A stretch of 64,000 nt of DNA from a virus (lineage: Duplodnaviria > Heunggongvirae > Uroviricota > Caudoviricetes), in IMG/VR virus record IMGVR_UViG_3300008108_000013; one strand, written 5' to 3'. Made by a program: the position numbers and the translations under genes. Shown here one piece after another: positions 27,883 through 47,900 of the stretch; the first letter of the stretch is position 1, and each line of letters starts with the position of its first letter. The notes beneath the pieces are model-generated. The model saw only the letters and a list, made by a program, of their open reading frames with translations, ran no database searches and was not told the DNA's origin.

Positions 27883-28714
27883 TCTCCACTTAGAGTTTTC
27901 AGACTGCTACGACCTTAAAAACGAGAACAATGCGAACGTATTGATCCTTGGTGGCGACATCATGATTGCCGAGGATCTTCACGACCATCCTTATGTTCCT
28001 AGTATCTACGAATACGGTTCATTTGCTGAACTAGGTCGTAAGCAGAAGCGTGTTCAGACATTCCGTGACTTCCTGAAGCGTATGAGCAACCTGTTTCCGC
28101 ATGTTATCTATGTTGCAGGTAACCACGAATTCTATCACGGCAAGTGGGTTAAGGGTATCCAGTACCTCAGAGACGAGTGTTCCCAGTTCCCCAATGTTCA
28201 CTTCTTAGAGCGTGATTCGATTAAGATCGACGATGTTATATTTGTCGGCGGAACACTATGGACTGATATGAACAAAGGTGATCCTCTCACTCTTCATGCT
28301 GTTCGTGATATGATGAACGATTTCCGTATCATTAAAAACGATGAAAAGGGCTATACTAACCTTAAGCCTGCGGATACTGTTATTCGTCATCGCGAAACAC
28401 TGGCATACATCAAAACTGTAATTGCTGAAAAGCCAGATGAAAAGTTTGTTGTTGTAGGACACCACAGTCCAAGTCACCAAAGTATCCATGAAGGATACCG
28501 ACATGAAACTCTCATGAATGGTGCATATCATAGTGACTTGAGTGAGTTTATTTTGGATCATCCGCAGATCAAACTGTGGACACATGGCCATACTCATCAC
28601 TGTTTTGATTATGTAATAGGCGAAACTCGTGTTGTTTGTAATCCACGTGGTTACCAAAGCGATGGTTACAGCGAGAATACTGGCTGGAATCCTAATATTA
28701 TTTTGGAGGTTTAA
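27860..28714 (+). CDS. calcineurin-like metallophosphoesterase
   Basis: DLHLE, GGDIM, GNHEF, GHHSP and GHTHH metal-binding blocks. Confidence 0.75.
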   Translation: MKITLASDLHLEFSDCYDLKNENNANVLILGGDIMIAEDLHDHPYVPSIYEYGSFAELGRKQKRVQTFRDFLKRMSNLFPHVIYVAGNHEFYHGKWVKGIQYLRDECSQFPNVHFLERDSIKIDDVIFVGGTLWTDMNKGDPLTLHAVRDMMNDFRIIKNDEKGYTNLKPADTVIRHRETLAYIKTVIAEKPDEKFVVVGHHSPSHQSIHEGYRHETLMNGAYHSDLSEFILDHPQIKLWTHGHTHHCFDYVIGETRVVCNPRGYQSDGYSENTGWNPNIILEV

Positions 28715-28888
28715 ATGACAGAAGAAAAGAAAGTAGTAACTGTAACTGAAATGCTACGACAGACAGGCAATAACACTGCCTTCTTTCTAGGTAAGGTTGC
28801 AGAACATATTGAACAGTTGGAGAGCGAGATCGCTCAACTTCGTAAACGTGTCGAAGAATTAGAAAATGAACGTTCAGACAACATTTAA
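28715..28888 (+). CDS. small coiled-coil hypothetical protein (57 aa)
   Basis: Not in the ORF track. MTEEKKVV...LESEIAQLRKRVEELENE. Overlaps the start of 28866. Confidence 0.3.
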   Translation: MTEEKKVVTVTEMLRQTGNNTAFFLGKVAEHIEQLESEIAQLRKRVEELENERSDNI

Positions 28889-29162
28889 CGAAAAAGAGCT
28901 TAAACTCTTTAAACGCTGGCTCAAAGGCTGTCTTGCCTTTGGGCCGGTCACTGTTACCTTTACTAAAAAAGACGGCAGTGAAAGAATCATGGAGTGTACG
29001 ACAGCACTATCACTAGTACCTGAAGATGCGGCTGATCCTATGATTCCTAAAAGAGAAAAGAAAGTCAACGAAGAAGTATGTCCTGTTTATGACATTGAAT
29101 CCAAGGCTTGGCGCAGTTTTCGTTGGGATAGTATCAAACAAGTTAGACTGGAAATTAAATGA
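28866..29162 (+). CDS. hypothetical protein
   Basis: ORF only. Confidence 0.4.
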   Translation: MNVQTTFNEKELKLFKRWLKGCLAFGPVTVTFTKKDGSERIMECTTALSLVPEDAADPMIPKREKKVNEEVCPVYDIESKAWRSFRWDSIKQVRLEIK

Positions 29163-29557
29163 CAGCACCTCTGCGTGATGACCTAATGGTTCAACAGCAG
29201 ATTAGAAACAGTTGGGAGCATATGATCGGAGTCATTATGCTCAACCAAACTGGGCGAAAACCCGTAAAAACAGTACTACCAAACTTTCTTGATCTTTGGC
29301 CTACACCAAAAGATTTCCTAAATGCACACCATATGACTGTTAAAAAAGTAATACGTCCATTAGGAATGACCAATGTTCGATATAAAAGACTGCGTCAAAT
29401 GACCAAAGATTACTTGACGTGGGACGGTAGTGATGCTACAATGCTTTATGGAATTGGAAAATATGGTTCTGATTCTTATGAAATTTTCTTTAAGCAAAAC
29501 TATTCTGTAAAACCCACGGATAAGGAACTTATCCGATATCTGAAAGAAGAAGTATGA
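29159..29557 (+). CDS. hypothetical protein
   Basis: ORF with ATGA-type coupling to neighbours. Confidence 0.45.
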   Translation: MTAPLRDDLMVQQQIRNSWEHMIGVIMLNQTGRKPVKTVLPNFLDLWPTPKDFLNAHHMTVKKVIRPLGMTNVRYKRLRQMTKDYLTWDGSDATMLYGIGKYGSDSYEIFFKQNYSVKPTDKELIRYLKEEV

Positions 29558-30003
29558 AGATTGGACTTAGCTATAGCCGTTGCGTTCGTGACATTGTAGA
29601 AGGCAAAGTTGATATCAATGATGTTTTGGTTATTGTTGCTCGAACCGACTTCGATCCACGAGATGACATGCAATGGCAGGGTATTTGGCAGGGCTACGGT
29701 GGTGGCAGTGACGGCAATATGATGCGTGGCTTCTTTGGTGGTAGTCATCCAGAGTGGGCCGGATATACCGACGTAGACGAAGATCGTTTTCGTAGTGTTA
29801 GTATTGAACTTTGGGAATCTGGAAAATTTCACCAGCCTCGTAAATTTGGCTCACACCCACGCAGACTTCCTCATATTTGGTTAGAAACAGTTCTTCCTAG
29901 CGAAGAGCTAGACAAGAATCCAGGAATCAAAGCCGCTTGGAATAAATTCCAGACATTGGCTAGCCTGTCTAGTGTAAACCTAAATGAAGATCACAGCGTG
30001 TGA
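29554..30003 (+). CDS. hypothetical protein
   Basis: ORF only. Confidence 0.45.
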   Translation: MKIGLSYSRCVRDIVEGKVDINDVLVIVARTDFDPRDDMQWQGIWQGYGGGSDGNMMRGFFGGSHPEWAGYTDVDEDRFRSVSIELWESGKFHQPRKFGSHPRRLPHIWLETVLPSEELDKNPGIKAAWNKFQTLASLSSVNLNEDHSV

Positions 30004-30530
30004 AGACTCTACCTTTAATTCTAACTTTTTTGGCTTTTCCTGTATTAGCAGATAACTGCCGTATGCAGGAAACCAGCCAAATGACCAGCCAGCGTAAAGT
30101 CGGCGAAGTTATAAATTTGGTTAAAAATAAAAGTCATAATCGTTGCGAAGTCAAGTATCAAATAGATGTTGATGGCAAGAAACATTTGGTTTCGTGGGTA
30201 CAAACTGGCTTGTATCAGGAAGAAATACTGTGCCAAATGGCAATCCAAAATGGCACTAACGATCTATTAGTCCGATTGCCCGGAGTCTACCAAACCGAAA
30301 CCATTATCAAGTGTAAAGAAAAAACTTATCCAAAATCGATCACCAAGGGGTATGAAGGTGAAGAAATAGAATTTGGTACACACCCACAAGCACCTGGATA
30401 TCGTAGAATTGGTACAGCGTCTAACTGTAGATTCTTTATTGGTTGGACTGCAAACGGCTATTCCGAAAGAACCCAAGGCGTCATCTGCGAAAATAAAAAC
30501 AATCTTTGGACAGTTGTGGACAAGTTCTGA
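30000..30530 (+). CDS. secreted protein (signal peptide)
   Basis: MKTLPLILTFLAFPVLA signal peptide. Confidence 0.5.
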   Translation: MKTLPLILTFLAFPVLADNCRMQETSQMTSQRKVGEVINLVKNKSHNRCEVKYQIDVDGKKHLVSWVQTGLYQEEILCQMAIQNGTNDLLVRLPGVYQTETIIKCKEKTYPKSITKGYEGEEIEFGTHPQAPGYRRIGTASNCRFFIGWTANGYSERTQGVICENKNNLWTVVDKF

Positions 30531-30531
30531 C

Positions 30532-30560
30532 TTGACCTTTTTCTCTAATTGTGATATAAT
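30532..30560 (+). promoter_or_regulatory. sigma70 promoter TTGACC-17-TATAAT
   Basis: -35 at 30532-30537 and -10 at 30555-30560, upstream of the small membrane-protein operon. Confidence 0.6.
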
Positions 30561-30591
30561 AACAATATCGTAATTCGATAGAGAGGCATTT

Positions 30592-30720
30592 ATGAAGGCA
30601 TTTATTTTAGGCACTATCTTTGGTTTGGTACTAGCTACTGTTGGTTTCAGCGGTATCGCTCGTATTCTTGACCGAGGAGTTGATACAGTTAAAACACACT
30701 CACAGGAGATGGCAAAATGA
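30592..30720 (+). CDS. small membrane protein (42 aa)
   Basis: Not in the track. MKAFILGTIFGLVLATVGFSGIARIL is a single transmembrane helix. Confidence 0.4.
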   Translation: MKAFILGTIFGLVLATVGFSGIARILDRGVDTVKTHSQEMAK

Positions 30721-30851
30721 AAGTAGTATTCTCATTTATCATTGTCGGTATGCTGACAGCATGTAGTACTTCCGCTGGATTAGTTAAAGGTCTAGGAGAA
30801 GATATCAAAGCTGGTACCGACTGGACAGCTTCTAAAATCAAATCTAACTAA
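30717..30851 (+). CDS. entericidin-like small lipoprotein
   Basis: Not in the track. MKVVFSFIIVGMLTACSTSAGLVKGLGEDIKAG has a lipobox LTAC followed by a GxGEDI motif, as in EcnA/EcnB. ATGA overlap with the previous ORF. Confidence 0.55.
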   Translation: MKVVFSFIIVGMLTACSTSAGLVKGLGEDIKAGTDWTASKIKSN

Positions 30852-30861
30852 GGACAAAAAA

Positions 30862-31425
30862 ATGAAAAAGACTCTACTACTTCTACCTCTTGTAGCAGTT
30901 ATGACTGCCTGCGGCACTACTGATCCTTATGGGAAACGTGCTGACATGGAACGTGAACGTCAAGAACGCTATGTAGAACGTTCAATCGACAAGGCACCTA
31001 AGTGGATGTTTGAATTGCCTAACAGTACCAGTGCAGTTTACGAAAACGGTACTGCGGTTAGTGGTGATTGGATGATGGCTGATGCTAAAGCCAAAGCAAC
31101 CGCTTATGGCAAACTTTGTATGCTAGCCGGTGGTACTGCTAGTCAGCAGACTAAAATCTACCGTACAGATTCCGAAGCAACGTCAACTGAACTCAGTGAA
31201 CAGGCAATTAAAACTTCATGCAAGGCTGTTGACCTGACGGGTGCTGAAGTTGCCAAAGACGGAATTAAAGTTGTCCAAGAGGGCAATCGATATCGTGTAT
31301 ATGTACTAGTAGCTTTGCCTACCGGCGATGCTAACATCCTACGCAAATACAAAGATGCTCAACGTCAACGAGAAATTGCCGCACAGCGAGCACCAGAAGC
31401 ATTTAAAGAAATGGAACGTCAATGA
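30862..31425 (+). CDS. lipoprotein
   Basis: Signal peptide with lipobox VMTAC. Confidence 0.55.
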   Translation: MKKTLLLLPLVAVMTACGTTDPYGKRADMERERQERYVERSIDKAPKWMFELPNSTSAVYENGTAVSGDWMMADAKAKATAYGKLCMLAGGTASQQTKIYRTDSEATSTELSEQAIKTSCKAVDLTGAEVAKDGIKVVQEGNRYRVYVLVALPTGDANILRKYKDAQRQREIAAQRAPEAFKEMERQ

Positions 31426-31598
31426 TTAAAATTATTCTAGCATTTCTCATAGCCTTTGGTATTTGCTATTTTGGTATTAAAGGCTATAGAGATCTAACCG
31501 GCAAGGACAAATGGGCATTGACAAAACTTGTAGGATACAGTATATTCTGTAGTGTTTTAGCAATCGCTGTACTGATTGCTATTGTTATTATTTTTTAA
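31422..31598 (+). CDS. small two-TM membrane protein (58 aa)
   Basis: Not in the track. ATGA overlap with the previous gene. Two hydrophobic helices. Confidence 0.4.
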   Translation: MIKIILAFLIAFGICYFGIKGYRDLTGKDKWALTKLVGYSIFCSVLAIAVLIAIVIIF

Positions 31599-31607
31599 GG
31601 ACTTAAA

Positions 31608-32405
31608 ATGAAACGTATTTTCACTCTCTCTATTCTCGCCGCCGCAGTTCTTGCTACTGGCTGTACTCGTATCGAAACCGGTGAGGTTGGTGTACGGGTC
31701 GGTTTTGACAAACAGGTTAAACCTGGTGAACTGCTACCTGGCTCATTCAATCAAACTATCATCGGCGATGTCTTGACGTTCCCAGTCAAAGACGTTAACG
31801 TTATTCTTGAGAACATGACCCCCGTTGCTAAAGATAACAGCACCATGAAAGACTTGGATGCTGTGGTTGTTTACAACATCAATCCGCAGAGCGTAGCTGA
31901 ACTCTACAGCACCAAGAACAAGGCATTCCACGCCGAGTTCAAAGGCGACACTTATGTGATGTATAATTATGTTGTACAGAATGCTCGTAACGCTATCTAC
32001 AAAGCGGCTCGTAAGTACGAAGCATTGGACATGGCAGACAATCGTGAACCGATGGAGAAGTTTATTCAGGAAGAAATTACTCGCAATCTTGCTGAAGAAA
32101 AACTAGACGGCACTATCATGATCAGCCAAGTGTTGATCCGTAATGTTGTACCAGCAGATAGTGTCGTAGAATCAGCTAACGCTCTTGTTCGTGCTAAGAA
32201 CGAATACAAGCAGAAGGAAGTTGAAGTTCAAACAGCTAAGAAAGAAGCAGAACGTATGGCCGCGTTGGCTAATAACTCTGCTAGTTCGATCGCATTTATG
32301 AATGCACAGGCCGCATTGAATATTTCGGAAGGTATCAAGAATGGTAAGGTACAGACTATTGTTGTACCGGCTAACTTCAATGCTTTGATGTTGCCTAAAC
32401 AGTAA
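31608..32405 (+). CDS. SPFH (band-7/prohibitin/HflKC-like) domain lipoprotein
   Basis: Lipobox LATGC. SPFH-like core followed by a C-terminal coiled-coil KEVEVQTAKKEAERMAAL. Confidence 0.7.
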   Translation: MKRIFTLSILAAAVLATGCTRIETGEVGVRVGFDKQVKPGELLPGSFNQTIIGDVLTFPVKDVNVILENMTPVAKDNSTMKDLDAVVVYNINPQSVAELYSTKNKAFHAEFKGDTYVMYNYVVQNARNAIYKAARKYEALDMADNREPMEKFIQEEITRNLAEEKLDGTIMISQVLIRNVVPADSVVESANALVRAKNEYKQKEVEVQTAKKEAERMAALANNSASSIAFMNAQAALNISEGIKNGKVQTIVVPANFNALMLPKQ

Positions 32406-32944
32406 TGAAACTGTTCGGACGCACAGGCGGCTACTACCTATTCTGGACAGGCTTTGTCTACTTCTGGATAGGTATGTACCTTGCTTTCACACATGCCGCC
32501 CTCCCAGAAATTGCTACAGCATTATGGATTTGTGTTTTAGCTCTACCTTTCGTAATTCCTCCGATTGGTAGATATTTTAACTTAGATGTGAGATGGGATA
32601 TGAACTTTTTAAGTTTTTTAGGATTTGGAAAAATGGTCAAAGACGGTGCAGATGTTTTAGAGTTTCCTAAGCCAAAAGCAGTTCCTCCGATGCCAGAAGT
32701 GCAACCTCCTGCTCCAAAAGAAGAACCTGCTAAAGTTTTTTATCGCCTTGGACTAACTGATAACAATCGAGTTGCGTTTCATATGGGCTATAGTGAAATT
32801 ACCATGAACAAAGATGGCTGTCAACAAATGATTGATCAGATTGCTTTCTTCCAAAGTCAATTATACGACGAAGGTGGTCCAAGTGACGACCCAGATGGAG
32901 GATTGCCGGTGCCAGAAGAAGTTGAAAATAAAAAGGCGGCGTAA
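32405..32944 (+). CDS. membrane protein with Pro-rich linker (possible SPFH partner)
   Basis: Two TM helices, a PPMPEVQPPAPKEEP linker and ATGA coupling to the SPFH gene. Confidence 0.45.
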   Translation: MKLFGRTGGYYLFWTGFVYFWIGMYLAFTHAALPEIATALWICVLALPFVIPPIGRYFNLDVRWDMNFLSFLGFGKMVKDGADVLEFPKPKAVPPMPEVQPPAPKEEPAKVFYRLGLTDNNRVAFHMGYSEITMNKDGCQQMIDQIAFFQSQLYDEGGPSDDPDGGLPVPEEVENKKAA

Positions 32945-33132
32945 TGAGTGGACGTGGAATTATAATGCAAGAACCCGATACTGTTTGCGAACTGTGCGGG
33001 AAAATTGATGAGTGTAGGCCTTATGGCGCAAACGATGAACAAATCTGTTTTGATTGTGCTATGGCTACACCCGAATCACAGGCCATTGCTGAAAAGAAAA
33101 TGGCTAGATATATTTTTGGAGAAGAAGAATAA
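32944..33132 (+). CDS. small zinc-ribbon protein
   Basis: CELCGK...CFDC. Confidence 0.35.
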   Translation: MSGRGIIMQEPDTVCELCGKIDECRPYGANDEQICFDCAMATPESQAIAEKKMARYIFGEEE

Positions 33133-33752
33133 TGCCTCGTTTAGTACCTACTATTATTGAAAAAGAAGCACACGGCGAACGTGCCTATGACATTTACAGT
33201 CGATTACTCAAGGATCGTATTGTTATGCTAGATTCAGATGTTGATGAACACATGTCTAGCCTAATTGTAGCACAACTACTATTTTTGGAAAGCCAAGGTA
33301 ATGAAGATATTAACTTCTTCATTAATAGCCCGGGCGGTAGTGTAACAGCAGGATTGGCTATCTATGATACCATGCAGTTTATCAAACCAGACATCGCAAC
33401 CTATGTTGTAGGTCAAGCCGCAAGTATGGGCTCATTTTTGTCCCAAGCAGGCACTCCAGGTAAAAGGTTTGTCTTGCCCGAAAGCCGGACAATGATCCAT
33501 CGTGTTAGTTCAGGTACTCCGGGTACCCGTGGTAGTGTTCATGTACAAGAGCTACAGTTTGAAGATGCTGTACGGGCTATGGAAGAGTCAAAAAGACTGA
33601 ATAAACGACTAACCGAACTATATGTTAAGCACAATACTAAGGGTAAAACCTACGAAGAACTGTTCGATACTATGAAATTTGACACATTTTTAAGTGCCGA
33701 AGAAGCAGTAAACTACGGTTTAGCGGACAAAGTTATAACTCAACGTCCTTGA
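33132..33752 (+). CDS. clpP: ATP-dependent Clp protease proteolytic subunit ClpP
   Basis: ERAYDIYSRLLKDRIVML N-terminus, GQAASMGS (catalytic Ser) and MIHRV (His). Full-length cellular-type ClpP. Confidence 0.85.
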   Translation: MPRLVPTIIEKEAHGERAYDIYSRLLKDRIVMLDSDVDEHMSSLIVAQLLFLESQGNEDINFFINSPGGSVTAGLAIYDTMQFIKPDIATYVVGQAASMGSFLSQAGTPGKRFVLPESRTMIHRVSSGTPGTRGSVHVQELQFEDAVRAMEESKRLNKRLTELYVKHNTKGKTYEELFDTMKFDTFLSAEEAVNYGLADKVITQRP

Positions 33753-33776
33753 GTTCTTTTGGGTTTTCTGCTATAG

Positions 33777-33784
33777 TATAAATA
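33777..33784 (+). promoter_or_regulatory. T4-type late promoter TATAAATA
   Basis: Exact TATAAATA 25 nt upstream of the GTG start of the second ClpP gene. Confidence 0.45.
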
Positions 33785-33809
33785 TACGCAGATAATCAAA
33801 GGGCCCATC

Positions 33810-34385
33810 GTGAAAAAACTAGAGGATTTTTCCGCTTCAGATCGTATTGATGTAAAATTACTCGAAAATCATACGCATTTCCTAGTAGGCGAAATTGACG
33901 AAAATAATGTCAACGAATGTATCAAATGGATAACCTACGAAAGTTTTGATACTAAAGAAAAAACGATAACTCTGTACATTAATTCAACAGGTGGTGATCT
34001 TTACCAAGCATTTGCCCTTATTGATGTGATGCAGAACAGTCATCATCCTATACGTGTTATAGGTATCGGTGCTGTGATGAGTGCGGCATTTTTAATATTT
34101 GCTAGCGGAACTAAGGGCGAAAGATTTGCCGCTCCAAACACTAGTTTTATGTGTCATCAGTTTTCGGCAGGCGTTGAAGCCAAATATCACGATATCAAAG
34201 CCGAAATGAAAGAAAATGAATCTCTTAACACTAAGATGGTTCAAATTCTAAAAGAAGCCACAGGACTAGCACCTTCCAAAATTAAGTCTAAACTACTTCC
34301 AGCCAGCGATGTTTATCTAACAGCCGACGAAGTTGTAGAATTGGGTGTTGCAGATTACGTCCTCGGTGTTGAAGACGAAGAATAA
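33810..34385 (+). CDS. ClpP paralog (second proteolytic subunit)
   Basis: Aligns with ClpP. GAVMSAAF has Ser in the catalytic position and MCHQF has His. GTG start. Divergent from the first copy. Confidence 0.65.
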   Translation: MKKLEDFSASDRIDVKLLENHTHFLVGEIDENNVNECIKWITYESFDTKEKTITLYINSTGGDLYQAFALIDVMQNSHHPIRVIGIGAVMSAAFLIFASGTKGERFAAPNTSFMCHQFSAGVEAKYHDIKAEMKENESLNTKMVQILKEATGLAPSKIKSKLLPASDVYLTADEVVELGVADYVLGVEDEE

Positions 34386-34388
34386 GTC

Positions 34389-34417
34389 TTGACAATTTTT
34401 CCTTAAGAAACTATAAT
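34389..34417 (+). promoter_or_regulatory. perfect-consensus sigma70 promoter TTGACA-17-TATAAT
   Basis: -35 at 34389-34394 and -10 at 34412-34417, 30 nt upstream of the DNA ligase ATG. Confidence 0.65.
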
Positions 34418-34446
34418 AATAACATTATAGTTAACTAGGATTCAAA

Positions 34447-35766
34447 ATGAAATTTCCATGGGAAGTTATTAGCGATTTAGAATCTGACAATAGCCGTTTG
34501 GCTAAAGAAGATGTTGTACAGAGAGAAGCAGTTGCAGGTAACAATGTTTTTTTTGAAGGCTGTCGATTGGCCCTAGATCCAATGATCACTTTTGGTCTTA
34601 AACAAATACCGGAGAAAAAAGATGAAGATGGCCCTGGCTTACCTTGGGATGGTTTTAATAGTGTTGTTCAGCGTCTACGTGATCGTAAGCTCACCGGTAA
34701 CGTTGCCCGTAGTGCCGTTGACACGTTGATGAATACTGCGACTAAGTCGCAATGGAACAATTGGTATCGTCGTATCCTTATCAAGGACTTGCGTTGTGGT
34801 ACTAGCGAAAAAACCATCAACAAAGTTGTAGAAAAGAAATGGCCAGAGTATTCAGTTCCTATTTTTAGTTGTCAGCTTGCTCACGATAGTGCTAATCACG
34901 AGAGCAAGGTTTCTGGACGTAAACTTATCGAAGTTAAACTCGATGGTGTTCGCGTTCTTACTATTGTTCGTACAGATGGTCGCGTTGAGCAGTTTAGTCG
35001 TAATGGTAAAGAGCTAGTAAACTTTGAACACATTACTAAGCAAATTAGCGAAGTCGTAAAGAAGGATCCTCCTAAATACGATCTTGTCTTAGACGGCGAA
35101 GTTATGTCTAGTAGTTTCCAAGACTTGATGAAGCAAGTACATCGCAAAAGTGATGTAGCCGCAAATGATGCTGTACTACATTTATTCGACCTTTGTCCCT
35201 TGGACAAGTTCCAGGAAGGATCTTGGGATAAAGATCAAGAAACTCGTAGTGCTTATGTTAAAGCCTGGATAGAAAAACATCAAGCAGATTTACCTAATGT
35301 TGCCTGTTTAACGTTCGAAGATGTAGATCTAGACACTGATATAGGCAAAAAACGATTTAAAGAAATTAATCAAAAGGCTATTGACGGTGGCTACGAAGGC
35401 ATTATGATTAAAGATCCTAATGCTGGTTATGAATGTAAACGTAGTGTGGCTTGGCTCAAGCTGAAACCGTTTATCGAAGTAAGCCTTGATGTTGTTGCCG
35501 TAGAAGAAGGCACTGGTCGTAATGTAGGTAAACTTGGTGCTTTAGTTTGTGAAGGTGTAGATGATGGAAAGTCGATACGAGTTAATGTTGGCAGTGGGTT
35601 TAGTGATGACCAGCGCAGTGGTTTTTGGAATTTTAAAGAAGACTGTGTGGGTATGGTTGCGGAAGTACGTGCAGATGCTATCACGCAAAATCAAGATGGC
35701 AGTTATTCGTTACGGTTTCCCAGGTTTTTACGTTTTAGGGGGCTCACACATGGCGAGAAAATATAA
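34447..35766 (+). CDS. ATP-dependent DNA ligase
   Basis: Motif I KLDGVR (KxDG). Nucleotidyltransferase and OB-domain length of 439 aa. Confidence 0.8.
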   Translation: MKFPWEVISDLESDNSRLAKEDVVQREAVAGNNVFFEGCRLALDPMITFGLKQIPEKKDEDGPGLPWDGFNSVVQRLRDRKLTGNVARSAVDTLMNTATKSQWNNWYRRILIKDLRCGTSEKTINKVVEKKWPEYSVPIFSCQLAHDSANHESKVSGRKLIEVKLDGVRVLTIVRTDGRVEQFSRNGKELVNFEHITKQISEVVKKDPPKYDLVLDGEVMSSSFQDLMKQVHRKSDVAANDAVLHLFDLCPLDKFQEGSWDKDQETRSAYVKAWIEKHQADLPNVACLTFEDVDLDTDIGKKRFKEINQKAIDGGYEGIMIKDPNAGYECKRSVAWLKLKPFIEVSLDVVAVEEGTGRNVGKLGALVCEGVDDGKSIRVNVGSGFSDDQRSGFWNFKEDCVGMVAEVRADAITQNQDGSYSLRFPRFLRFRGLTHGEKI

Positions 35767-35998
35767 TATTCGGCGTTCGATGCACAAGGACATGCTCTAC
35801 GGAGCATTACTTGAGTTGGTACAAAATCAACGTGTTTGGCACGAAAGCTCTGTAAGTCCAGAGTATAGCCACTTGACGGAAGAAGGTAAAGACGCTATCA
35901 TACATATTGTTGAAGAAATGTTTAGAGGATTGCAGACAATTCACAAACAAGAAATTAAAGAAGAAGCAAAGAAACAAACAATGGAGGCATTAAAGTGA
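35750..35998 (+). CDS. hypothetical protein
   Basis: Internal ATG MARKYNI of track ORF 35561..35998. The upstream part lies inside the ligase gene. Confidence 0.35.
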   Translation: MARKYNIRRSMHKDMLYGALLELVQNQRVWHESSVSPEYSHLTEEGKDAIIHIVEEMFRGLQTIHKQEIKEEAKKQTMEALK

Positions 35999-36369
35999 CG
36001 AATCCTTTTCGTGATCAAGAAAAATTTATGAAGGCCTGCGATCAAAGTGTCGAAGGCTGGAACCAGGAGCAATTTAATCTGTATGTTAATTTAATCGATG
36101 AAGAATACAATGACGAACTTAAGACCGCCATTGCTAATTGCGACCCAGTTGAAATCGTAGATGCACTAACAGATATTCTAGTTGTTACTATTGGCGCACT
36201 GCACAGCATGGGTGCAGACGGCGAAGGCGCCTGGAAAGAAGTTATGCGTACTAACTTTGCCAAGATTGACAAAGAAACTGGCAAGGTGCGTAAACGCGAG
36301 GACGGAAAAGTCTTAAAACCCGTGGGCTGGACACCGCCCGAATTAAATAAGTTTTTAACTAAGGAGTAA
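35995..36369 (+). CDS. mazG: MazG-like nucleotide pyrophosphohydrolase
   Basis: All-alpha NTP-PPase signature. EExxDE-like acidic pairs (IDEEYNDELKTAIAN, DALTDILVV). Confidence 0.7.
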   Translation: MTNPFRDQEKFMKACDQSVEGWNQEQFNLYVNLIDEEYNDELKTAIANCDPVEIVDALTDILVVTIGALHSMGADGEGAWKEVMRTNFAKIDKETGKVRKREDGKVLKPVGWTPPELNKFLTKE

Positions 36370-36372
36370 ACT

Positions 36373-37062
36373 ATGTTTGGATCTAGTTACACAGGCGGTG
36401 CAGTTTACCGTTCAGCAAGTGATATTAATGGTGCAATGGGTCGAGTTTACGGACACATGGGACTTGCAGTTATCACATCAATGATTGTTAGTTTTTTAGT
36501 AGGCAATAATACTACACTCATGCAGTTCTTTTTTACCGGGGCAATGAAGTGGGTTGTAATTTTTGCACCGCTGGTGGCTATTCTAGCTGTTAGCTTCGCA
36601 ATGGATAAGTTTAGTAAATCTGCATTACAACTATTTTTACATGGATTTGCCGCACTAATGGGATTGAGTTTTGCTACAATTTTTGTAGTCTATAACATGG
36701 GCAGTATTGTAAGTGCATTTATGAGTGCCGCAGTTTTATTTGGCGTCATGAGTTTTTATGGTTACTTTACTAAAAAGAATCTAGACAGTGTTGGCCAATT
36801 TATGTTTATTGGTTTGATTGCTATCATTATTGCTAGTATCATCAATATCTTCATTGGTAGTACTGTAATGCAAATGGTAATTTCAGCTATTGCTGTTATT
36901 ATTTTCCTAGGATTGACTGCCTACGACACACAAAAGATTCGTGAAATGGTCAGTTATGACAATGACGGTAAGGCCGAGGTAATGGGTGCATTGACACTAT
37001 ATCTCGACTTCATTAATCTGTTCTTAAACTTGCTACAACTGTTCGGCGGACGTAAGGATTAA
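36373..37062 (+). CDS. Bax inhibitor-1 / YccA family membrane protein
   Basis: Seven hydrophobic segments. The N-terminal GAVYRSA..MGRVYGHMGLAV is typical of BI-1/YccA. Confidence 0.7.
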   Translation: MFGSSYTGGAVYRSASDINGAMGRVYGHMGLAVITSMIVSFLVGNNTTLMQFFFTGAMKWVVIFAPLVAILAVSFAMDKFSKSALQLFLHGFAALMGLSFATIFVVYNMGSIVSAFMSAAVLFGVMSFYGYFTKKNLDSVGQFMFIGLIAIIIASIINIFIGSTVMQMVISAIAVIIFLGLTAYDTQKIREMVSYDNDGKAEVMGALTLYLDFINLFLNLLQLFGGRKD

Positions 37063-38119: not shown

Positions 38120-39499
38120 ATGGATAATAAAATCGTTTGGTTAAAACAAATAAAAAAGGACCTAGACAAAGTCGGGCCAGGCATGTGTCTAGCAAAATGG
38201 GTTCAAACAACATTACACCTTCATAACGGACACACTCATAGCTGTCACCATCCCGACACACACAAAGTTCCTTTAGAAGAGATTGCTGTAAATCCAAGTG
38301 CGTTACATAATACCAATTTCAAAAAAGAGCAGAGAAAATTAATGATGACTGGACAACGTCCAGCAGAGTGTCACTATTGCTGGAATGTTGAGGATAATGT
38401 TCCTCCGGGCGTTGATGATGTCTTTAGCGATAGGGTTTATAAAAGTGCCAACTCTAAATGGGCAGGCCCAAAACATTATGCTGAAGTTCTTAACATCGGC
38501 TGGCAGGGTGATATTAATCCGACATATCTCGAAGTAAGTTTTAGTTACGCTTGTAATTTTAAGTGCTCATATTGCAGTCCGCAGATTAGTTCAAAATGGA
38601 TGGAAGAAATTAAAGAGTATGGCGAATATCCGACTACGCTGAGATACAACGGTTTAGATCATATCAACTACCAAAACAAAATGCCTATCCCGGAAAGAGA
38701 AGATAATCCATATACAGATGCATTCTGGAAGTGGTGGCCCGAAATATATAACACCCTTCACACGTTTAGAATTACCGGCGGCGAACCGTTAATGACTAAA
38801 CATACTTTTCGTACATTAGATTACGTTATTGAAAATCCTAATCCTGAACTAGAACTTGCGATTAATTCTAACCTATGTGTTCCTGATAAATTATTTGATG
38901 AGTTTATAGAAAAAGTTAAAATTATTACAGAAAATAAACTAGTCAAGCAATTTACACTCTATACAAGTTGCGAAGCTACTGGAAAAAAAGCAGAATACAT
39001 TCGTCACGGATTAGATTATAACAAGTGGATCTCTAATTGTAATCGTTATCTAAAAGAAATTCCTGCCGGTAATTTTAGTATTATGTCAACATACAACGCT
39101 CTTTCAATAACTTCGTATATGGAGTTTTTAAAAGATGTTCTTATTCTTAAATTAAAATATGCAAATAAAGAATTACACAGGACAATTAATATAGACATAC
39201 CGTACTTAGATAATCCTAAATGGATGAGCGTTAGAATCTTGCCAACATCTTACATATCTTTAATACAAGAACAGGTTCAATATATGAAAGACAATCATTG
39301 CGATGGCAAAGGTTTTCAACACTGGGAAGTTGAAAAGCTAGATAGGATACAGTATCTTATCAAAGAAGATCCAGAACAATCCTGGCTTAAAGATTTTTAT
39401 ATGTTTTTTAACGAACACGATCGAAGAAGAAATACGGATTTTAAAAATACGTTCCCTGAATTAATTGATTTTTATCACGCATGTCAACAAATAAAATAA
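38120..39499 (+). CDS. radical SAM enzyme, family A (distant fifth copy)
   Basis: MCLAKW...NGHTHSCHHP, AECHYCWNVE, YACNFKCSYCSP, TGGEP and C-terminal DRRRNTDFKNTFPEL. Confidence 0.7.
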   Translation: MDNKIVWLKQIKKDLDKVGPGMCLAKWVQTTLHLHNGHTHSCHHPDTHKVPLEEIAVNPSALHNTNFKKEQRKLMMTGQRPAECHYCWNVEDNVPPGVDDVFSDRVYKSANSKWAGPKHYAEVLNIGWQGDINPTYLEVSFSYACNFKCSYCSPQISSKWMEEIKEYGEYPTTLRYNGLDHINYQNKMPIPEREDNPYTDAFWKWWPEIYNTLHTFRITGGEPLMTKHTFRTLDYVIENPNPELELAINSNLCVPDKLFDEFIEKVKIITENKLVKQFTLYTSCEATGKKAEYIRHGLDYNKWISNCNRYLKEIPAGNFSIMSTYNALSITSYMEFLKDVLILKLKYANKELHRTINIDIPYLDNPKWMSVRILPTSYISLIQEQVQYMKDNHCDGKGFQHWEVEKLDRIQYLIKEDPEQSWLKDFYMFFNEHDRRRNTDFKNTFPELIDFYHACQQIK

Positions 39500-43430: not shown

Positions 43431-44015
43431 ATGGCAATTAAAATCAAAGCAACTAAAGTTTTTAAATATCTACCCTGCGGTCACGCTCAATATTTTGATC
43501 TTGAACCTGATGGTAGTCCTGGCGAGTGTGCCAGTGTTCACGGTTATGATCGAGAAGTTGAATTTACCTTTGCGGGTGAAATTGACGACTATGGTTGGAT
43601 CATTCCATTTGGTGAACTAGCACCAGTTAAAGCATTCTTAGAATACTACTTCGATCACGTGACTGTTCTTCCCGCAGATGATCCAAGATTGGGTCAAATT
43701 ACAAAAGAACTTACTGTACCTGGAGGTCTATTAGGTACACTTCGTGTTCTCCCTAGCGGTGTGTCGATGGAAATGAGTTCGATTTTTATTTGGGAACATG
43801 TTAATCATTACGTATATAAAGTAACCAATGGTCGCTGTTATGTAGAGCGTGTTCGTGTTTATGAACACAATCGCAATGATGCTATGTGCGAAGTAGATGA
43901 AGTCACAGCTAAAACAGACGCACAGCGTAAAATGACCGGCGGCGAAGTACTGCCAATGAAGCCACGCTGGGCCTGGGAAGCTCCAAAAGATCTTATCCAA
44001 AGATTGGAACAATAA
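43431..44015 (+). CDS. 6-pyruvoyl-tetrahydropterin synthase / QueD-like protein
   Basis: CxxxxHGH-like ECASVHGYD motif in the expected position. Weak overall. Confidence 0.4.
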   Translation: MAIKIKATKVFKYLPCGHAQYFDLEPDGSPGECASVHGYDREVEFTFAGEIDDYGWIIPFGELAPVKAFLEYYFDHVTVLPADDPRLGQITKELTVPGGLLGTLRVLPSGVSMEMSSIFIWEHVNHYVYKVTNGRCYVERVRVYEHNRNDAMCEVDEVTAKTDAQRKMTGGEVLPMKPRWAWEAPKDLIQRLEQ

Positions 44016-44175: not shown

Positions 44176-45195
44176 ATGGCTAAAATTGGTTTCGCATGTA
44201 AATGGATTGACTTTCCTAATCAAGTCGACGGCATTAAACCCAAAGATGCTTGTAAGCAGTATAATACCGGTGCTACAACTGTAGCTTGGTTAAATAGACA
44301 GAGCAGAGATGTTGCAGAACAAAAGCTCTGGGACCTTATGGTTCAAAATATCGAAGCAACACACAAACTCGTAAAGCGAGTAGGAGAATTGGATGAATCC
44401 CTTAGGATGGTTCGTATTAGCAGTGATATCCTTCCTGTATATACTGAGCCCAAGTGGTCTTACTTTTGGCGCAGACTCGACGTTGTGGACTACTGTGATC
44501 GGCATTTTAAACTTGTTGGCGATAGTGCTCGTAGAAGCGGCGTTCGTCTTTCTTTTCATCCTGGCCAGTTCACTGTTCTTGCTAGCGATAATCCTGAAAT
44601 TGTCAAAAGATCAATAGAGGAGTTTGAGTATCATGCAGATATGGCCCGTTGGATGGGGTACGGTAAATCATTTCAGGACTTTAAAATCAATGTCCACATC
44701 GCGGGTAGAGCCGGTCCAGAAGGTATCCGACAAGCCCATAAGAGACTCAGTCCAGAAGCCCGTAACTGTATTACCATCGAAAACGAAGAAAACGCCTGGG
44801 GCTTAGATGATTGCCTTACTCTTTCTGATATTATCCCTATCGTTCTTGATATACACCATCATTGGGTCCGAGAAGGAGAGTATATCAATAGTCAAGACTC
44901 AAGAGTTAAACAGGTGGAAGCGAGTTGGCGTGGTGTTCGTCCTGCTATGCATTACAGCGTATCTCGTGAAGATATACTCACCGGACACAGTACAAGTGTT
45001 TTGCCAGATTACAAAGCTCTGTTAGAATCTGGATATAAAAAAGCAAAGCTCAGAGCACACTCTGATTTTTATTGGAACAAGGAAGTTAATAATTGGGCAA
45101 TAAGTTTTCTAGACCAGTTCGACATAATGTGCGAAAGCAAAGGCAAGAATCTAGCCAGTATGGAACTGTACAAACAGTGGAAGGGAATCGAATGA
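44176..45195 (+). CDS. uvdE: UV-damage endonuclease UvdE/Uve1 family
   Basis: TIM-barrel UvdE blocks (RISSDILPVY, GVRLSFHPGQF, CITIENEENAW, LDIHHH). Confidence 0.75.
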   Translation: MAKIGFACKWIDFPNQVDGIKPKDACKQYNTGATTVAWLNRQSRDVAEQKLWDLMVQNIEATHKLVKRVGELDESLRMVRISSDILPVYTEPKWSYFWRRLDVVDYCDRHFKLVGDSARRSGVRLSFHPGQFTVLASDNPEIVKRSIEEFEYHADMARWMGYGKSFQDFKINVHIAGRAGPEGIRQAHKRLSPEARNCITIENEENAWGLDDCLTLSDIIPIVLDIHHHWVREGEYINSQDSRVKQVEASWRGVRPAMHYSVSREDILTGHSTSVLPDYKALLESGYKKAKLRAHSDFYWNKEVNNWAISFLDQFDIMCESKGKNLASMELYKQWKGIE

Positions 45196-45386
45196 TAACC
45201 AGAGAAAAACTAATACATCATATCGAAACCATGCGTGAAAGGCATGATGAACTCGATAAGCAGATTAAAGAATTATACGAACATCATGCCAATGATCTAA
45301 AAGTAGAAGAACTTAAAAAGAAAAAGCTCAAACTCAAAGATGAGATTGAGCAAACAAGTTCAAAGTTAAAGAAAATTGATCAATAA
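45192..45386 (+). CDS. small coiled-coil protein (DUF465/YdcH-like)
   Basis: MITREKLIHHIETMRERHDELDKQIKELYEHHANDL. ATGA overlap with the uvdE stop. Confidence 0.4.
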   Translation: MITREKLIHHIETMRERHDELDKQIKELYEHHANDLKVEELKKKKLKLKDEIEQTSSKLKKIDQ

Positions 45387-45412
45387 AAAAGGGCCACTAG
45401 GGCCCTTTTTTT
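45385..45412. terminator. bidirectional rho-independent terminator
   Basis: AAAAAA-GGGCC-acta-GGGCCC-TTTTTTT is flanked by A and T runs. It serves plus gene 45192..45386 and minus gene 45411..45710. Confidence 0.65.
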
Positions 45413-45710
45413 ATGCCTTTGGTTTACGGCCGCGAGCTTTTTTAACAGTATCTTTTGCTTTAGTGGTGGCTTTTTTAACACCAGCCTTAGCTTTTTCTTT
45501 AACTACTGCAACGTCAGCTGAATCAACCTTACCGTCTTTGTTAACATCGGCGGTAGCTTTTACACCCTCGACGACATTTTGAACGGCGGCTGTTGCATCA
45601 GCAACGTCAACCTTACCGTCTTGATTAACATCAAAACTTTTGGCATTTCTATTGTAGTACCAGAAACCAGCAACTGCTAAAATTGCGACAGCAATTAGAA
45701 GTAATTCCAT
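45411..45710 (-). CDS. small membrane-anchored protein with two dockerin/EF-hand-like Ca-loop motifs and a Lys-rich tail
   Basis: N-terminal TM helix, DVNQDGKVDVAD and DVNKDGKVDSAD loops, and C-terminal KKATTKAKDTVKKARGRKPKA. Confidence 0.5.
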   Translation of the reverse strand: MELLLIAVAILAVAGFWYYNRNAKSFDVNQDGKVDVADATAAVQNVVEGVKATADVNKDGKVDSADVAVVKEKAKAGVKKATTKAKDTVKKARGRKPKA

Positions 45711-45763: not shown

Positions 45764-46678
45764 ATGAAAAATACGCCAATAGTTACTGTTACTTGTACCA
45801 GAGATCTGCCATTACTTGAATTGCAGGCGCAAAGTGTGTATCATTACTTAGATACAGAATGTCCTGTTTATATCATTGTAAATGAATCTAATATGTTAGA
45901 TTGGTTAGATTACTTTGATAAAAATATAAGACATTTTTACGATAAGCATAAACTTAAAATACTATTTAGAGATGCGTTTCCTGGAGAATGGCAACAATGG
46001 ATACCTAGTAAAATTAACCCATGGCATGTGGGCTGGGAAACCCAACAAATATTAAAGTTGGCTATAGCAGAGCATTTAACTACAGATGCATTTCTAGTCT
46101 GCGACAGCCAGAATTTTTTGATTAAAAACTGGTCAGCCGATTATAATATTCCTGAGGGGAAGATTCCTTACAGGACAGGAATTTATGCTATGCCAATAGA
46201 CATATGGCAAGAATATTCAAAACGTCTAGACCTGGATCTAAAATCTCCTAATTCTCAAACTATATCAATGTGTACCCCGATTTTTTTACACACTCAATTA
46301 GTTCAAAGTCTAATCAAAAGCAAAGGTGGCGTACAAAAATTTAGCAGTTGGTTTAAAACTGCTTCCAGAGTAAAAAGCGAATTTGTATTATATGCTCTGT
46401 GGGCTGAAAAACACGGCGGGCTTAACAAATTACACTATTGCGTCGAAGACTGGGCTAGTCCGTATTTGCGAGATAGCAATAATTTTGATTATGATTTTGA
46501 GAAATTTATAAATTTTATCGGAGTACACGAACCACATTCTTGGATCAGTGTTAACCATCGTAGCTGGGGCGATATGAGTGGCAAACAATATCAGAGATTA
46601 AAAGCTAAATTATTAGAATATAAACTAGAACCAAAATTTGACGAATATCGTAGCACTTACGTTGACTACAAATTCTAA
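45764..46678 (+). CDS. hypothetical protein
   Basis: ORF only. Confidence 0.45.
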   Translation: MKNTPIVTVTCTRDLPLLELQAQSVYHYLDTECPVYIIVNESNMLDWLDYFDKNIRHFYDKHKLKILFRDAFPGEWQQWIPSKINPWHVGWETQQILKLAIAEHLTTDAFLVCDSQNFLIKNWSADYNIPEGKIPYRTGIYAMPIDIWQEYSKRLDLDLKSPNSQTISMCTPIFLHTQLVQSLIKSKGGVQKFSSWFKTASRVKSEFVLYALWAEKHGGLNKLHYCVEDWASPYLRDSNNFDYDFEKFINFIGVHEPHSWISVNHRSWGDMSGKQYQRLKAKLLEYKLEPKFDEYRSTYVDYKF

Positions 46679-46690
46679 ATAAATATCACT

Positions 46691-47254
46691 ATGTATAATT
46701 TTATCAAGTGGGCTACTCTACAAGAAAGCCATACTCCCAAAACCTTAGAACAACTAATTCTTCCTTATAAAAAGGACGAACTAGATCCTGTTCTTTCTGA
46801 AGATACGATAAAATTACACTACGGTAAACTGTATAAAACTTATGTTGAAAGATACAATGCTGGGGAGGGCGATCCCGATTTTAACGAAGCAGGCGCATTC
46901 TTACATCATATTCTTTTCGAACAATTCCAAGTTCCTAGCGGCAACAACAATCCTGACGGCTCTGCAGGAGAGTTTATCAATAAACATTTTAAGTCTTACG
47001 AAGCATTTAAAGACGCTTTTAACAAAGAAGCAATGGCTATACAAGGCTCGGGGTGGGTATATTTGGCTCGTAACGGTGAAATAAAAACCATTAAAAATCA
47101 CCAAATCAAACAAGACATCGTGCTACTCATAGACTGGTGGGAACATGCGTTTATCTTAGATTACGGATCAGATAAAAAACGTTATCTTGAGAACCAATGG
47201 AAGATTATAAACTGGAACGTAATAAGTGCTAGAATTGGTCTAGTGTCTTCATAG
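46691..47254 (+). CDS. Fe/Mn superoxide dismutase family protein
   Basis: LPYKKDELDPVLSEDTIKLHYGK (first His ligand), AFLHH (second His), GSGWVYL and DWWEHAF (Asp and His ligands). All four metal ligands are conserved. Confidence 0.7.
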   Translation: MYNFIKWATLQESHTPKTLEQLILPYKKDELDPVLSEDTIKLHYGKLYKTYVERYNAGEGDPDFNEAGAFLHHILFEQFQVPSGNNNPDGSAGEFINKHFKSYEAFKDAFNKEAMAIQGSGWVYLARNGEIKTIKNHQIKQDIVLLIDWWEHAFILDYGSDKKRYLENQWKIINWNVISARIGLVSS

Positions 47255-47516
47255 AGCTTACAGGCATATCCCATATTCTACGTGCTTCTACACCCTTTTC
47301 TTGTGCAAACTTTTTAGCATCACAATCTCCGCATACATGATAGTAGTTGTTGTTTAAACGCTTGGGATCCATGTTACCCTTATCTCGTTTAAATATCCCC
47401 TGACAACAATCACAACGAAAGATCAAAACAGTTTTTTTTCTTGTGTAGGCATGCATCGTACCGTACTTACTCTTACGGTAGTGAGCTTGTTGTGCGTATT
47501 CTTGTCCTATGTACAT
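47229..47516 (-). CDS. small zinc-ribbon protein
   Basis: CDCCQG...CGDCD, convergent with the SOD gene. Confidence 0.35.
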   Translation of the reverse strand: MYIGQEYAQQAHYRKSKYGTMHAYTRKKTVLIFRCDCCQGIFKRDKGNMDPKRLNNNYYHVCGDCDAKKFAQEKGVEARRIWDMPVSSMKTLDQF

Positions 47517-47576
47517 AACTGTATTTACATTAAGGTTATAAAAATGTTTTGCTAAATATGATATCGAGGGGTAAAT

Positions 47577-47900
47577 GTGATTACAATTACTGATTCAGCA
47601 AAACAAAAAATTAAAGATCTTCTCTATGAAGAAGGGAATCCTAACCTAGCACTAAGAACATTTGTCCAAGGTGGCGGATGCAGTGGTTTTAGTTATGGAT
47701 TTACATTTGACGAAGAAATCAACGAAGATGATTTCGAACTACCCTTAGATGAATTTAAATTACTTGTAGACAGCATGAGTATGCAGTATCTACAAGGTGC
47801 AGAAATCGATTATAAAGAAGAGCTAATGGGCTCTCAATTCACTATTAAAAATCCCAACGCAGTAACTACCTGCGGGTGTGGTTCCAGTTTCGGAGTATAA
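47577..47900 (+). CDS. A-type Fe-S cluster carrier (IscA/ErpA/HesB family)
   Basis: GGGCSGFSY and C-terminal CGCGSSF signature cysteines. GTG start with a gagggg RBS. Confidence 0.8.

Follow-up and report, generated by a model that had tools for sequence, protein, structure and literature searches.

The window analyzed here (the whole stretch of 64,000 nucleotides, IMG/VR record IMGVR_UViG_3300008108_000013) comes from an uncultivated freshwater jumbo phage, distantly related to the PA5oct-like phages. It contains a locus in which a compact Fe/Mn-family superoxide dismutase (SOD) is followed by a short gene on the opposite strand, here named Znr, by a divergent intergenic spacer, and by ErpA, an A-type carrier of iron-sulfur (Fe-S) clusters, whose stop codon lies 5 nt ahead of the ATG of a giant tail-fiber-like gene (Table 1). 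Our analysis establishes the identities of these genes, their metal sites, the synteny of the region, and the recurrent pairing of this SOD with Fe-S biogenesis genes in related phages. The initial annotation of the window had presented the SOD and the carrier as a pair that likely supports 10 radical S-adenosylmethionine (rSAM) proteins of the phage. The two genes turn out to be separated by a 95-aa open reading frame (ORF) on the minus strand, that of Znr, and the window has nine rSAM ORFs with the CxxxCxxC motif, seven of them above the Pfam gathering score and two just below it. Searched as DNA, the 1.2-kb region had no match among 50,697 phage records, whereas 11 metagenomic contigs, the longest of 215 kb, carry a SOD identical to that of the window.

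Table 1. Features of the SOD-ErpA locus and of the remainder of the window
Feature	Position	Strand	Evidence and remarks
Compact ("mini") Fe/Mn-family SOD, 187 aa	46691-47254	+	Pfam, PDB alignments, invariant columns, AF2/Foldseek
Znr, 95-aa zinc-ribbon-like protein	47229-47516	-	Synteny, residue conservation
Znr-ErpA divergent intergenic spacer, 60 nt	47517-47576	.	
ErpA A-type Fe-S carrier, 107 aa, GTG start	47577-47900	+	NCBIfam, PDB, tree
Tail-fiber-like protein, 4087 aa	47906-60169	+	PHROGs tail-fiber and baseplate-connector matches; T4 gp10-like N-terminus
rSAM/SPASM island, 8 genes	10154-23723		CxxxCxxC motifs; Pfam Radical_SAM, SPASM
rSAM genes, island part 1	10154-11188(+), 13939-14844(-), 15500-16795(-), 16788-18104(-)		
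rSAM genes, island part 2	18942-20237(-), 20203-21168(-), 21161-22168(-), 22749-23723(-)		
Ninth rSAM-like gene (CNFKCSYC)	38120-39499	+	Pfam 23.2 bits, under the gathering score of 29.5
PTPS/QueD-like protein	43431-44015	+	Pfam PTPS 52.7 bits; PHROG QueD-like
UvdE UV-damage endonuclease	44176-45195	+	Pfam 132.7 bits
Bidirectional intrinsic-terminator-like hairpin (A-run, GGGCC stem, T-run)	45384-45413		Read from sequence
Small 99-aa protein, dockerin/EF-hand-like	45411-45710	-	
DUF6492 protein	45764-46678	+	Pfam; 12 nt upstream of SOD, co-oriented; only in a subset of the clade

The dismutase, the carrier, and the gene between them

The assignment of the first gene to the Fe/Mn SODs holds, with both Pfam domains (PF00081 and PF02777) above their cut-offs: Sod_Fe_C scores 84.4 bits (cut-off 20.9) and Sod_Fe_N 35.4 bits (cut-off 27), the latter matching only positions 7-42 of the 82 in its profile. 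The NCBIfam equivalogs for SodA and SodB are not reached (best 84.3 bits, cut-off 348). We read the protein, from its sequence, as a member of the Fe/Mn family that is not an ortholog of the named bacterial SodA or SodB. By sequence, its closest solved structures are the cambialistic SOD of Porphyromonas gingivalis and SodFM2 of Bacteroides fragilis. An AlphaFold model made from 30 relatives (pLDDT, the predicted local distance difference test, 83; pTM, the predicted template-modeling score, 0.81) matches solved Fe/Mn SODs in Foldseek with template-modeling (TM) scores of 0.71-0.79. It shares the two-domain fold of the P. gingivalis (1QNN, 1UES), B. fragilis (8AVL), and Escherichia coli (FeSOD, 1ISA) enzymes, with TM scores of 0.75-0.78, and its two long helices are joined by a shortened connection, that is, by a reduced helical hairpin.

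What distinguishes this SOD from the bacterial ones? The four metal ligands, H43 (in LHY), H72, D148, and H152 (in D..WEH), are 100% conserved in 81 unique sequences of the clade and are also present in the PA5oct and Vibrio homologs. The initial annotation had listed the same four, and only its "HH" needs correction: H72 alone is the invariant ligand, while H73 varies (D, N, or H). Besides the His-His-Asp-His ligands, the protein shares with bacterial SODs the equivalent of Tyr34 (Tyr51, invariant), the Trp of GSGW, and the D-x-W-E-H motif. It differs from them, at 26-33% identity, in having Leu for His30, His137 for Gln, and short spacings. The first two ligands are 24-29 residues apart in compact SODs and 45-55 in ordinary ones, and the GSGW Trp lies 26 residues from the Asp ligand instead of 33-35. 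The Fe-type Gln position is taken by Ala69, and the Mn-type position by an invariant His137 (in N136-H137); the structure of a Q69H FeSOD (1ZA5) is present among the fold matches. We considered that the gene might encode a decaying pseudo-enzyme and rejected this reading because every catalytic-site residue is invariant. The conservation of the metal site indicates a gene under selection, whose product is a putative dismutase.

A library of 1.84 billion proteins holds compact SODs of this kind in about 30 clusters (50% identity), and the viral structure library BFVD gave only two SOD matches. The compact subfamily includes PA5oct gp223 (annotated as hypothetical) and the homologs in MIJ3, Callisto (annotated "sodB"), and Vibrio phage 2.275.O, which have all its diagnostic residues. 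Like the group of the window, these jumbo phages have structural genes of T4 type and encode a giant structural protein. Their SODs are 36-39% identical to that of the window and have ClpS and a gp222-like gene, or a KTSC gene, as neighbors, instead of Fe-S genes; ErpA was not found in the four genomes. The main text of the PA5oct paper (PMC7318152) mentions neither SOD nor rSAM, and the same is true of the MIJ3 paper. The Vibrio phage SOD and the protein P0311, used as IMG/VR queries, gave no match. As judged from these sequences, the compact SOD is an old and fixed element, a viral subfamily common to this group, PA5oct, and a Vibrio jumbo phage. Its Leu for His30, its His for Gln, and its short hairpin make it of interest for SOD structure-function studies.

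The second gene was likewise correctly recognized as an A-type carrier. It scores 75.2 bits with Pfam Fe-S_biosyn (PF01521) and 166.7 bits with the NCBIfam ErpA equivalog NF010147 (cut-off 117), whereas the IscA and SufA equivalogs remain under their cut-offs. The protein aligns end to end with Haemophilus influenzae HI1723 (PDB 2APN) at 131 bits, and the three signature cysteines pointed out at first, C35 (GGGCSGF), C99, and C101 (both in CGCGSSF), are invariant in 80 unique sequences and align with those of HI1723; like the SOD gene, this one is real and under selection. In length, in these cysteines, in its match to the ErpA hidden Markov model, and in its 54-72% identity to proteobacterial proteins, it resembles bacterial ErpA (HI1723, E. 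coli). Hence, the window gene at 47577-47900 is, by its sequence, a bona fide ErpA, which would bind and transfer clusters. It differs from bacterial ErpA in that the phage proteins form a clade of their own, in its phage-like composition, and in its place 5 nt before a tail-fiber gene. Among cellular ErpAs, the nearest ones found belong to Burkholderiales, Neisseriales, and Methylococcales (63-72% identity), the phage ErpAs are monophyletic in a neighbor-joining tree with 72 bacterial ErpAs, and the GC content at third codon positions (27%) is similar to that of the giant fiber gene. These three observations together suggest a single old acquisition, probably from a betaproteobacterial host lineage, followed by adaptation to the base composition of the phage.

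Between the two lies Znr, which overlaps the 3' end of the SOD gene by 26 nt and diverges from ErpA over the 60-nt spacer. It is present in 148 of 152 related loci, and its residues C35, C38, C62, C65, H22, and H60 are invariant. Its 233 homologs, none of which has a Pfam domain, are 67-86% identical to the window protein among those listed. Znr is a real, clade-specific gene with a zinc-ribbon-like product. It always stands beside ErpA or, in a related clade that we call clade B, beside the fiber gene.

The spacer is itself conserved. Across 73 distinct loci its DNA is near-invariant (TATTTACATTAAGRTTATAAAA..TTTGATAAATATCATATCGAGGGC), far beyond what is expected from the flanking coding sequence. 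It contains a NATAAATA-like, i.e., (N)ATAAATA-like, box about 17 nt ahead of the ErpA start, and a GAGGGG ribosome-binding site precedes the GTG start codon. Directly upstream of gene starts in the window, ATAAATA was observed 4 times, versus 0.16 expected. We infer that the box could be a T4-type late promoter; sigma-70 promoters were also sought in the spacer and nothing convincing was found. The fiber gene starts 6-10 nt after the last ErpA codon in all loci, and this fixed gap makes it probable that ErpA and the giant fiber gene are co-transcribed.

Conserved order and variety of Fe-S genes behind the dismutase

How widespread is this arrangement? In IMG/VR, 408 loci match the SOD and 323 match ErpA (63-93% identity), and the longest of their contigs measures 345 kb. 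We fetched 152 loci of the ErpA-bearing clade of the window (clade A), and metagenomic matches were read to 10 kb on each side. SOD and ErpA occur together and in the same order in 134 of the 152. The order in the clade is p396, p484 (fiber-like), PTPS, UvdE, a variable stretch (DUF465, dockerin-like, or DUF6492 genes), SOD, Znr on the minus strand, ErpA, and the giant fiber gene, and the part from UvdE to the fiber gene is kept in most loci. In 81 of 105 related loci, UvdE is the upstream neighbor of SOD, 250-700 bp away; in the window, the UvdE and PTPS/QueD-like genes that had been noted nearby are both confirmed by Pfam. Median identity across this neighborhood is highest for ErpA (87%), lies at 71-75% for SOD, UvdE, p396, and Znr, and drops to 47% for p484. 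The 152 loci had no Suf match, and the window itself showed neither isc nor suf partners. These data support a pairing of SOD and carrier that is non-random and conserved.

Clade B (loci L275 to L294) shows what else may occupy this place. Its SOD and UvdE are 59-65% and 66-74% identical to those of the window, and the giant fiber gene follows SOD in 14 of the 20 loci, as in the window, after a gap that is only 91 bp in some. There is no ErpA in these loci. Eight of them (L276, L281, L284, L286, L287, L291, L293, and L294) have SufC and SufD between SOD and the giant fiber gene, and another, L282 (IMGVR_UViG_3300012665_000990, positions 10600-15760), has a complete sufB-sufC-sufD-sufS-sufE/sufT-sufA set in the same place, ending 2 nt ahead of the fiber gene. 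Scores for SufB (822 bits, cut-off 717), SufC (278, cut-off 213), and SufS (417 bits) are high, and the set also includes SufD, a SufE/SufT fusion, and SufA. Compared with the bacterial SUF system (sufABCDSE), clade B carries either SufCD or the full set, while the window has the terminal carrier only.

More distant compact SODs have Fe-S genes behind them as well. In L258 and L259, a SOD that is 33% identical to that of the window overlaps by 4 nt a divergent A-type carrier of 109 aa (73.7 bits with TIGR00049, only 39% identity to the window ErpA). ErpA follows SOD after 0-6 nt, without Znr, in L260 and in the 289-kb contig L274, whose SODs are 44% and 53% identical to that of the window. The L260 carrier scores 149.5 bits on the ErpA model and is 53-61% identical to ErpAs of the window clade and 48-58% to bacterial ones, and it may share its ancestry with the window gene or be a separate acquisition; that of L274 was assigned by its 67-68% identity to the window ErpA. 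The 356-kb contig L272 has a carrier gene 7 kb downstream of SOD. Across the SOD lineages, no cargo unrelated to Fe-S was seen in the slot except Znr. The freshwater jumbo phages of this group are widespread, with the compact SOD at a fixed position and Fe-S genes repeatedly behind it. As a side observation on the same theme, L258 encodes a ferritin-family protein, an iron-storage element, at 7331-7798(-), 2 kb from the SOD/carrier pair.

The refilling of the slot after SOD by Fe-S genes of different kinds and origins is difficult to account for unless, in these phages, the removal of superoxide cooperates with the assembly or delivery of Fe-S clusters. We favor, at slightly better than even chances, the reading that SOD and the genes behind it are a conserved phage module that serves the supply of Fe-S clusters in general when there is oxidative stress. 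Its backbone would be the compact SOD ahead of the giant fiber gene, and the genes behind SOD would be an exchangeable Fe-S cargo.

Alternatively, SOD and ErpA could be two independent auxiliary genes, neighbors by descent without direct functional coupling. SOD would then belong to a kit against UV and oxidative damage and for proteostasis (UvdE, HhH-GPD glycosylase, MazG-like protein, DNA ligase, ClpP, BI-1) inherited from a common ancestor with PA5oct-like phages, and ErpA, taken from a host later on, would raise the Fe-S supply in general. Several facts fit this. UvdE is the usual upstream neighbor of SOD; the PA5oct SOD lies among ClpX, ClpS, Hsp20, FtsH, BI-1, ligase, MazG, and EndoIII-like genes, with no ErpA; and the window has a similar gene kit 10-18 kb upstream. 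SOD and ErpA also have different histories (the former is 36-39% identical to the PA5oct and Vibrio phage proteins, the latter 63-72% to bacterial ErpA), they lie in separate transcription units, and SOD is dispensable in some members. However, independence does not explain why at least four sets of Fe-S genes (ErpA, the divergent A-type carrier, SufCD, and the full SUF set) stand directly after SODs that are 33-65% identical, nor why in three cases they overlap or nearly touch the SOD gene. A-type carriers are, moreover, rare in reference phages, with 2 credible records among 50,697. We hold independence to be unlikely, though it comes next after the general Fe-S module.

In the phage collection, most tblastn matches to ErpA, SOD, and SufB were bacterial contigs or prophage edges and were disregarded (among them Acinetobacter MD-2021a, Salmonella, Staphylococcus, and Listeria). 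A SufB match in the Microcystis phage MaAM05 (L295, MW495066.1) was not used as a precedent, as it looks cellular. The last 13 kb of that record (260819-273876) carry panB, panC, a gluconeogenesis factor, and sufBCDS-iscU, and look like cellular DNA, possibly from misassembly or contamination.

Radical-SAM genes and the role of the proposed module

The rSAM island of the window is the largest demand for [4Fe-4S] clusters that it encodes. Eight of the nine rSAM genes are in the island, and the position of the ninth holds orthologs or other rSAMs in 46 of 53 related loci. The proteins of 15500-16795(-) and 10154-11188(+) have a SPASM-like Cys-rich stretch at their N terminus (about residues 3-85), before the CxxxCxxC core; those of 16788-18104(-) and 18942-20237(-) have similar N termini, and two paralogs start with "CPLPW." The same region, 2678-23723, also encodes five cupins resembling Asp/Asn beta-hydroxylases (2678-3400, 6558-7733 in two stretches, 8738-9394, and 9387-10115), a homolog of flavin-dependent Trp halogenases (5374-6561, 290 bits), and an AMP-binding fragment (4229-4876). 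By its gene content it looks like an island for the tailoring of peptides, proteins, or small molecules, in which O2-dependent and O2-sensitive enzymes are mixed.

The initial annotation had seen in the two genes a likely support system for these enzymes, and in its strict form this reading holds that both primarily mature and protect the phage rSAM proteins. Beyond the nine rSAM/SPASM genes of the window, it can draw on the abundance of rSAMs throughout the ErpA clade. Of the 53 clade A loci whose sequence extends 1.5 kb or more beyond p396 on its upstream side, 46 have one to four rSAM homologs; these are only 23-72% identical to those of the window, so the rSAM repertoire is hypervariable and ErpA is core. 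A window rSAM protein used as an IMG/VR query found only 5 loci at 48-52% identity, as the set has diverged too far for contigs to be matched by name. In clade A loci there are 56 CxxxCxxC ORFs of at least 200 aa (0.31 per 10 kb), versus none of at least 180 aa in the 266 kb of flanks of clade B, which has no ErpA. In addition, an A-type carrier and two rSAM/SPASM genes lie within 5 kb on L255, an independent IMG/VR contig, marine viral genomes combine such carriers with rSAMs (see below), and in L266 a B12-rSAM gene stands upstream of the compact SOD. The correlation of carrier and rSAM is nevertheless uneven: in 10-kb flanks from related clades, clade A (with ErpA) is rich in rSAMs and clade B (without ErpA) has none, but the ErpA-bearing L274 and L260 and the Suf-bearing clade B loci have no rSAM within 10 kb. 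Since the clades are related, these counts are not independent events.

Other phages separate SOD, carrier, and rSAM further. The PA5oct genome, which has the SOD, contains no CxxxCxxC ORF of at least 100 aa and no rSAM confirmed by Pfam. No rSAM lies within 20 kb of the ErpA-like genes of the huge phages LR756504 and LR756511 (the huge-phage carrier, used as a query, found 3 loci), and the KVP40-like Vibrio phages and RsoM2USA have rSAMs, while SOD and ErpA were not found in them. Within clade A itself, at least two SOD-less members retain rSAMs. SOD is thus not tied to rSAM content, and the cassette is also found where no rSAM is visible. Of the linkage first proposed, the conserved pairing of SOD and carrier is supported and the role of SOD as an rSAM-specific helper is not. 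We regard the strict rSAM reading as improbable, and place it a little below independence of the two genes. Regarding PA5oct gp162 (L252:30441-31313), which is annotated as a "QueE-like radical SAM domain," we saw neither a CxxxCxxC motif nor a Pfam match at E<=0.001; possibly the gene is misannotated, or its product has diverged strongly.

The idea that a phage carrier serves rSAM enzymes is plausible in this rSAM-rich clade, but it is not new. Marine viral genomes were found to encode an A-type carrier (and/or IscU) with up to 12 rSAM genes, and Nishimura et al. (2017, PMC5332604) suggested that this carrier supplies viral and host Fe-S proteins alike. Genes for erpA and iscU are also found in HMO-2011-type phages (PMC9038755). 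Phage A-type carriers with their proposed role for rSAMs, and viral Fe-S assembly genes as auxiliary metabolic genes, are therefore already known, and the window resembles the genomes of PMC5332604 in joining ErpA to nine rSAM ORFs within 64 kb. It differs from the systems of both papers, which do not mention SOD, in that ErpA is fixed near a compact SOD and a giant fiber gene, and in that its carrier is a betaproteobacterial-type ErpA in freshwater jumbo phages, whose relatives have Suf genes in the same slot. The conserved SOD/Fe-S cassette, the compact viral SOD subfamily, and the SufCD or full SUF sets in relatives appear undescribed in the literature that we searched.

How could a general Fe-S module work? 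The host would be an aerobic cell in sunlit water that, once infected, may no longer be able to induce its own SoxRS, OxyR, and IscR responses. Phage ErpA would raise the capacity for inserting [4Fe-4S] clusters into apo-proteins, and the at least nine rSAM/SPASM enzymes of the phage, as the largest encoded demand, might be among the recipients. By holding superoxide low, SOD would shield clusters during assembly and transit as well as labile Fe-S enzymes, and would stop the release of iron. In E. coli, ErpA acts as the last carrier of [4Fe-4S] clusters under aerobic conditions, and SUF is the Fe-S pathway suited to oxidative stress, which fits a neighboring SOD; both agree with such a module. 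The module suggests that infection in oxic, sunlit water is limited jointly by the control of superoxide and the supply of Fe-S clusters, and SOD, ErpA or Suf, and rSAM clients make it concrete and testable.

A number of observations weigh against a general Fe-S module. SOD and ErpA are not one operon, as Znr lies between them on the opposite strand. About nine clade A loci cleanly lack SOD and have ErpA, in the order UvdE, (DUF465), Znr, ErpA (one of them, L099, was confirmed ORF by ORF), and in two such loci, L101 and L137, rSAM homologs are found upstream of ErpA. Conversely, the slot is empty or holds Znr only in six clade B loci, and there is no Fe-S gene beside SOD in the PA5oct type (ClpS, SOD, gp222-like) or in the Vibrio/TARA type (KTSC, SOD), and no Fe-S biogenesis gene in L266 (B12-rSAM, small ORF, SOD) and L270. 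In the SOD itself, the residue in place of His30, Leu47, is invariant, and the outer-sphere Gln is missing at both canonical sites. The pairing could also be due in part to common descent and not to repeated selection. Finally, two rSAM enzymes, viperin and HemN, were reported to withstand both superoxide and H2O2 in vitro, and pathways that depend on rSAM enzymes were unaffected in E. coli stressed with H2O2 and superoxide (Rohaun and Imlay 2022, PMC9576991), which also speaks against the strict rSAM reading.

The position of SOD upstream of the giant fiber gene, only 91 bp away in some clade B loci, suggests another role, namely that SOD is associated with the virion or the fiber and deployed with the particle, as was proposed for some giant-virus SODs, and that it has no Fe-S partner role. 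PA5oct gp223 carries an electrospray-ionization tandem mass spectrometry (ESI-MS/MS) flag from a particle preparation (PMC7318152), yet the same list includes thymidylate synthase, ribonucleotide reductase, and GTP cyclohydrolase, which are non-structural. No signal or anchoring feature was seen in the protein, and the recurrent Fe-S neighbors would be left unexplained. We find a virion SOD very improbable and rank it last, after the general Fe-S module, unrelated auxiliary genes, and strict rSAM support.

A bolder extension of the general module takes up the fiber gene in a different way. SOD and the exchangeable Fe-S genes might be a dedicated phage cassette that tolerates oxidative stress, co-expressed with the fiber and feeding rSAM/SPASM enzymes that modify virion proteins. 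The Asp/Asn hydroxylase-like and halogenase genes of the island would act with these enzymes, and the 4087-aa fiber could be the target. Here, the cassette and its tight coupling to the fiber gene are seen, while the timing of expression, the clients, and fiber modification are speculation, and we consider the reading as a whole quite improbable. If true, the phages would have in the cassette an Fe-S supply of their own, which in some relatives amounts to a whole phage-borne SUF system.

Further features of the window

The fiber protein contains six copies of a repeat of about 50 aa, Y(D/N)xxxCxRD(V/I)GxIIDA...GGN/GxNYQ(S/T), which begin near residues 584, 977, 1735, 1881, 2060, and 2202. Upstream of SOD, the hairpin listed in Table 1 closes the UvdE-DUF465 unit and parts it from the downstream genes. 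The adjacent 99-aa protein has an N-terminal hydrophobic helix, two dockerin/EF-hand-like Ca-binding repeats, and a Lys/Ala-rich tail; a shorter Lys/Ala-rich ORF replaces it in relatives, e.g., L099:9414-9620. Further upstream, positions 27860-37062 hold a stress, repair, and proteostasis set similar to the neighborhood of the PA5oct SOD, which comprises a metallophosphoesterase, WYL_2, a Cys-free HhH-GPD glycosylase, an SPFH/Band-7 protein, two ClpP paralogs, an ATP-dependent DNA ligase, a MazG-like protein, and a Bax1-I/YccA-like membrane protein.

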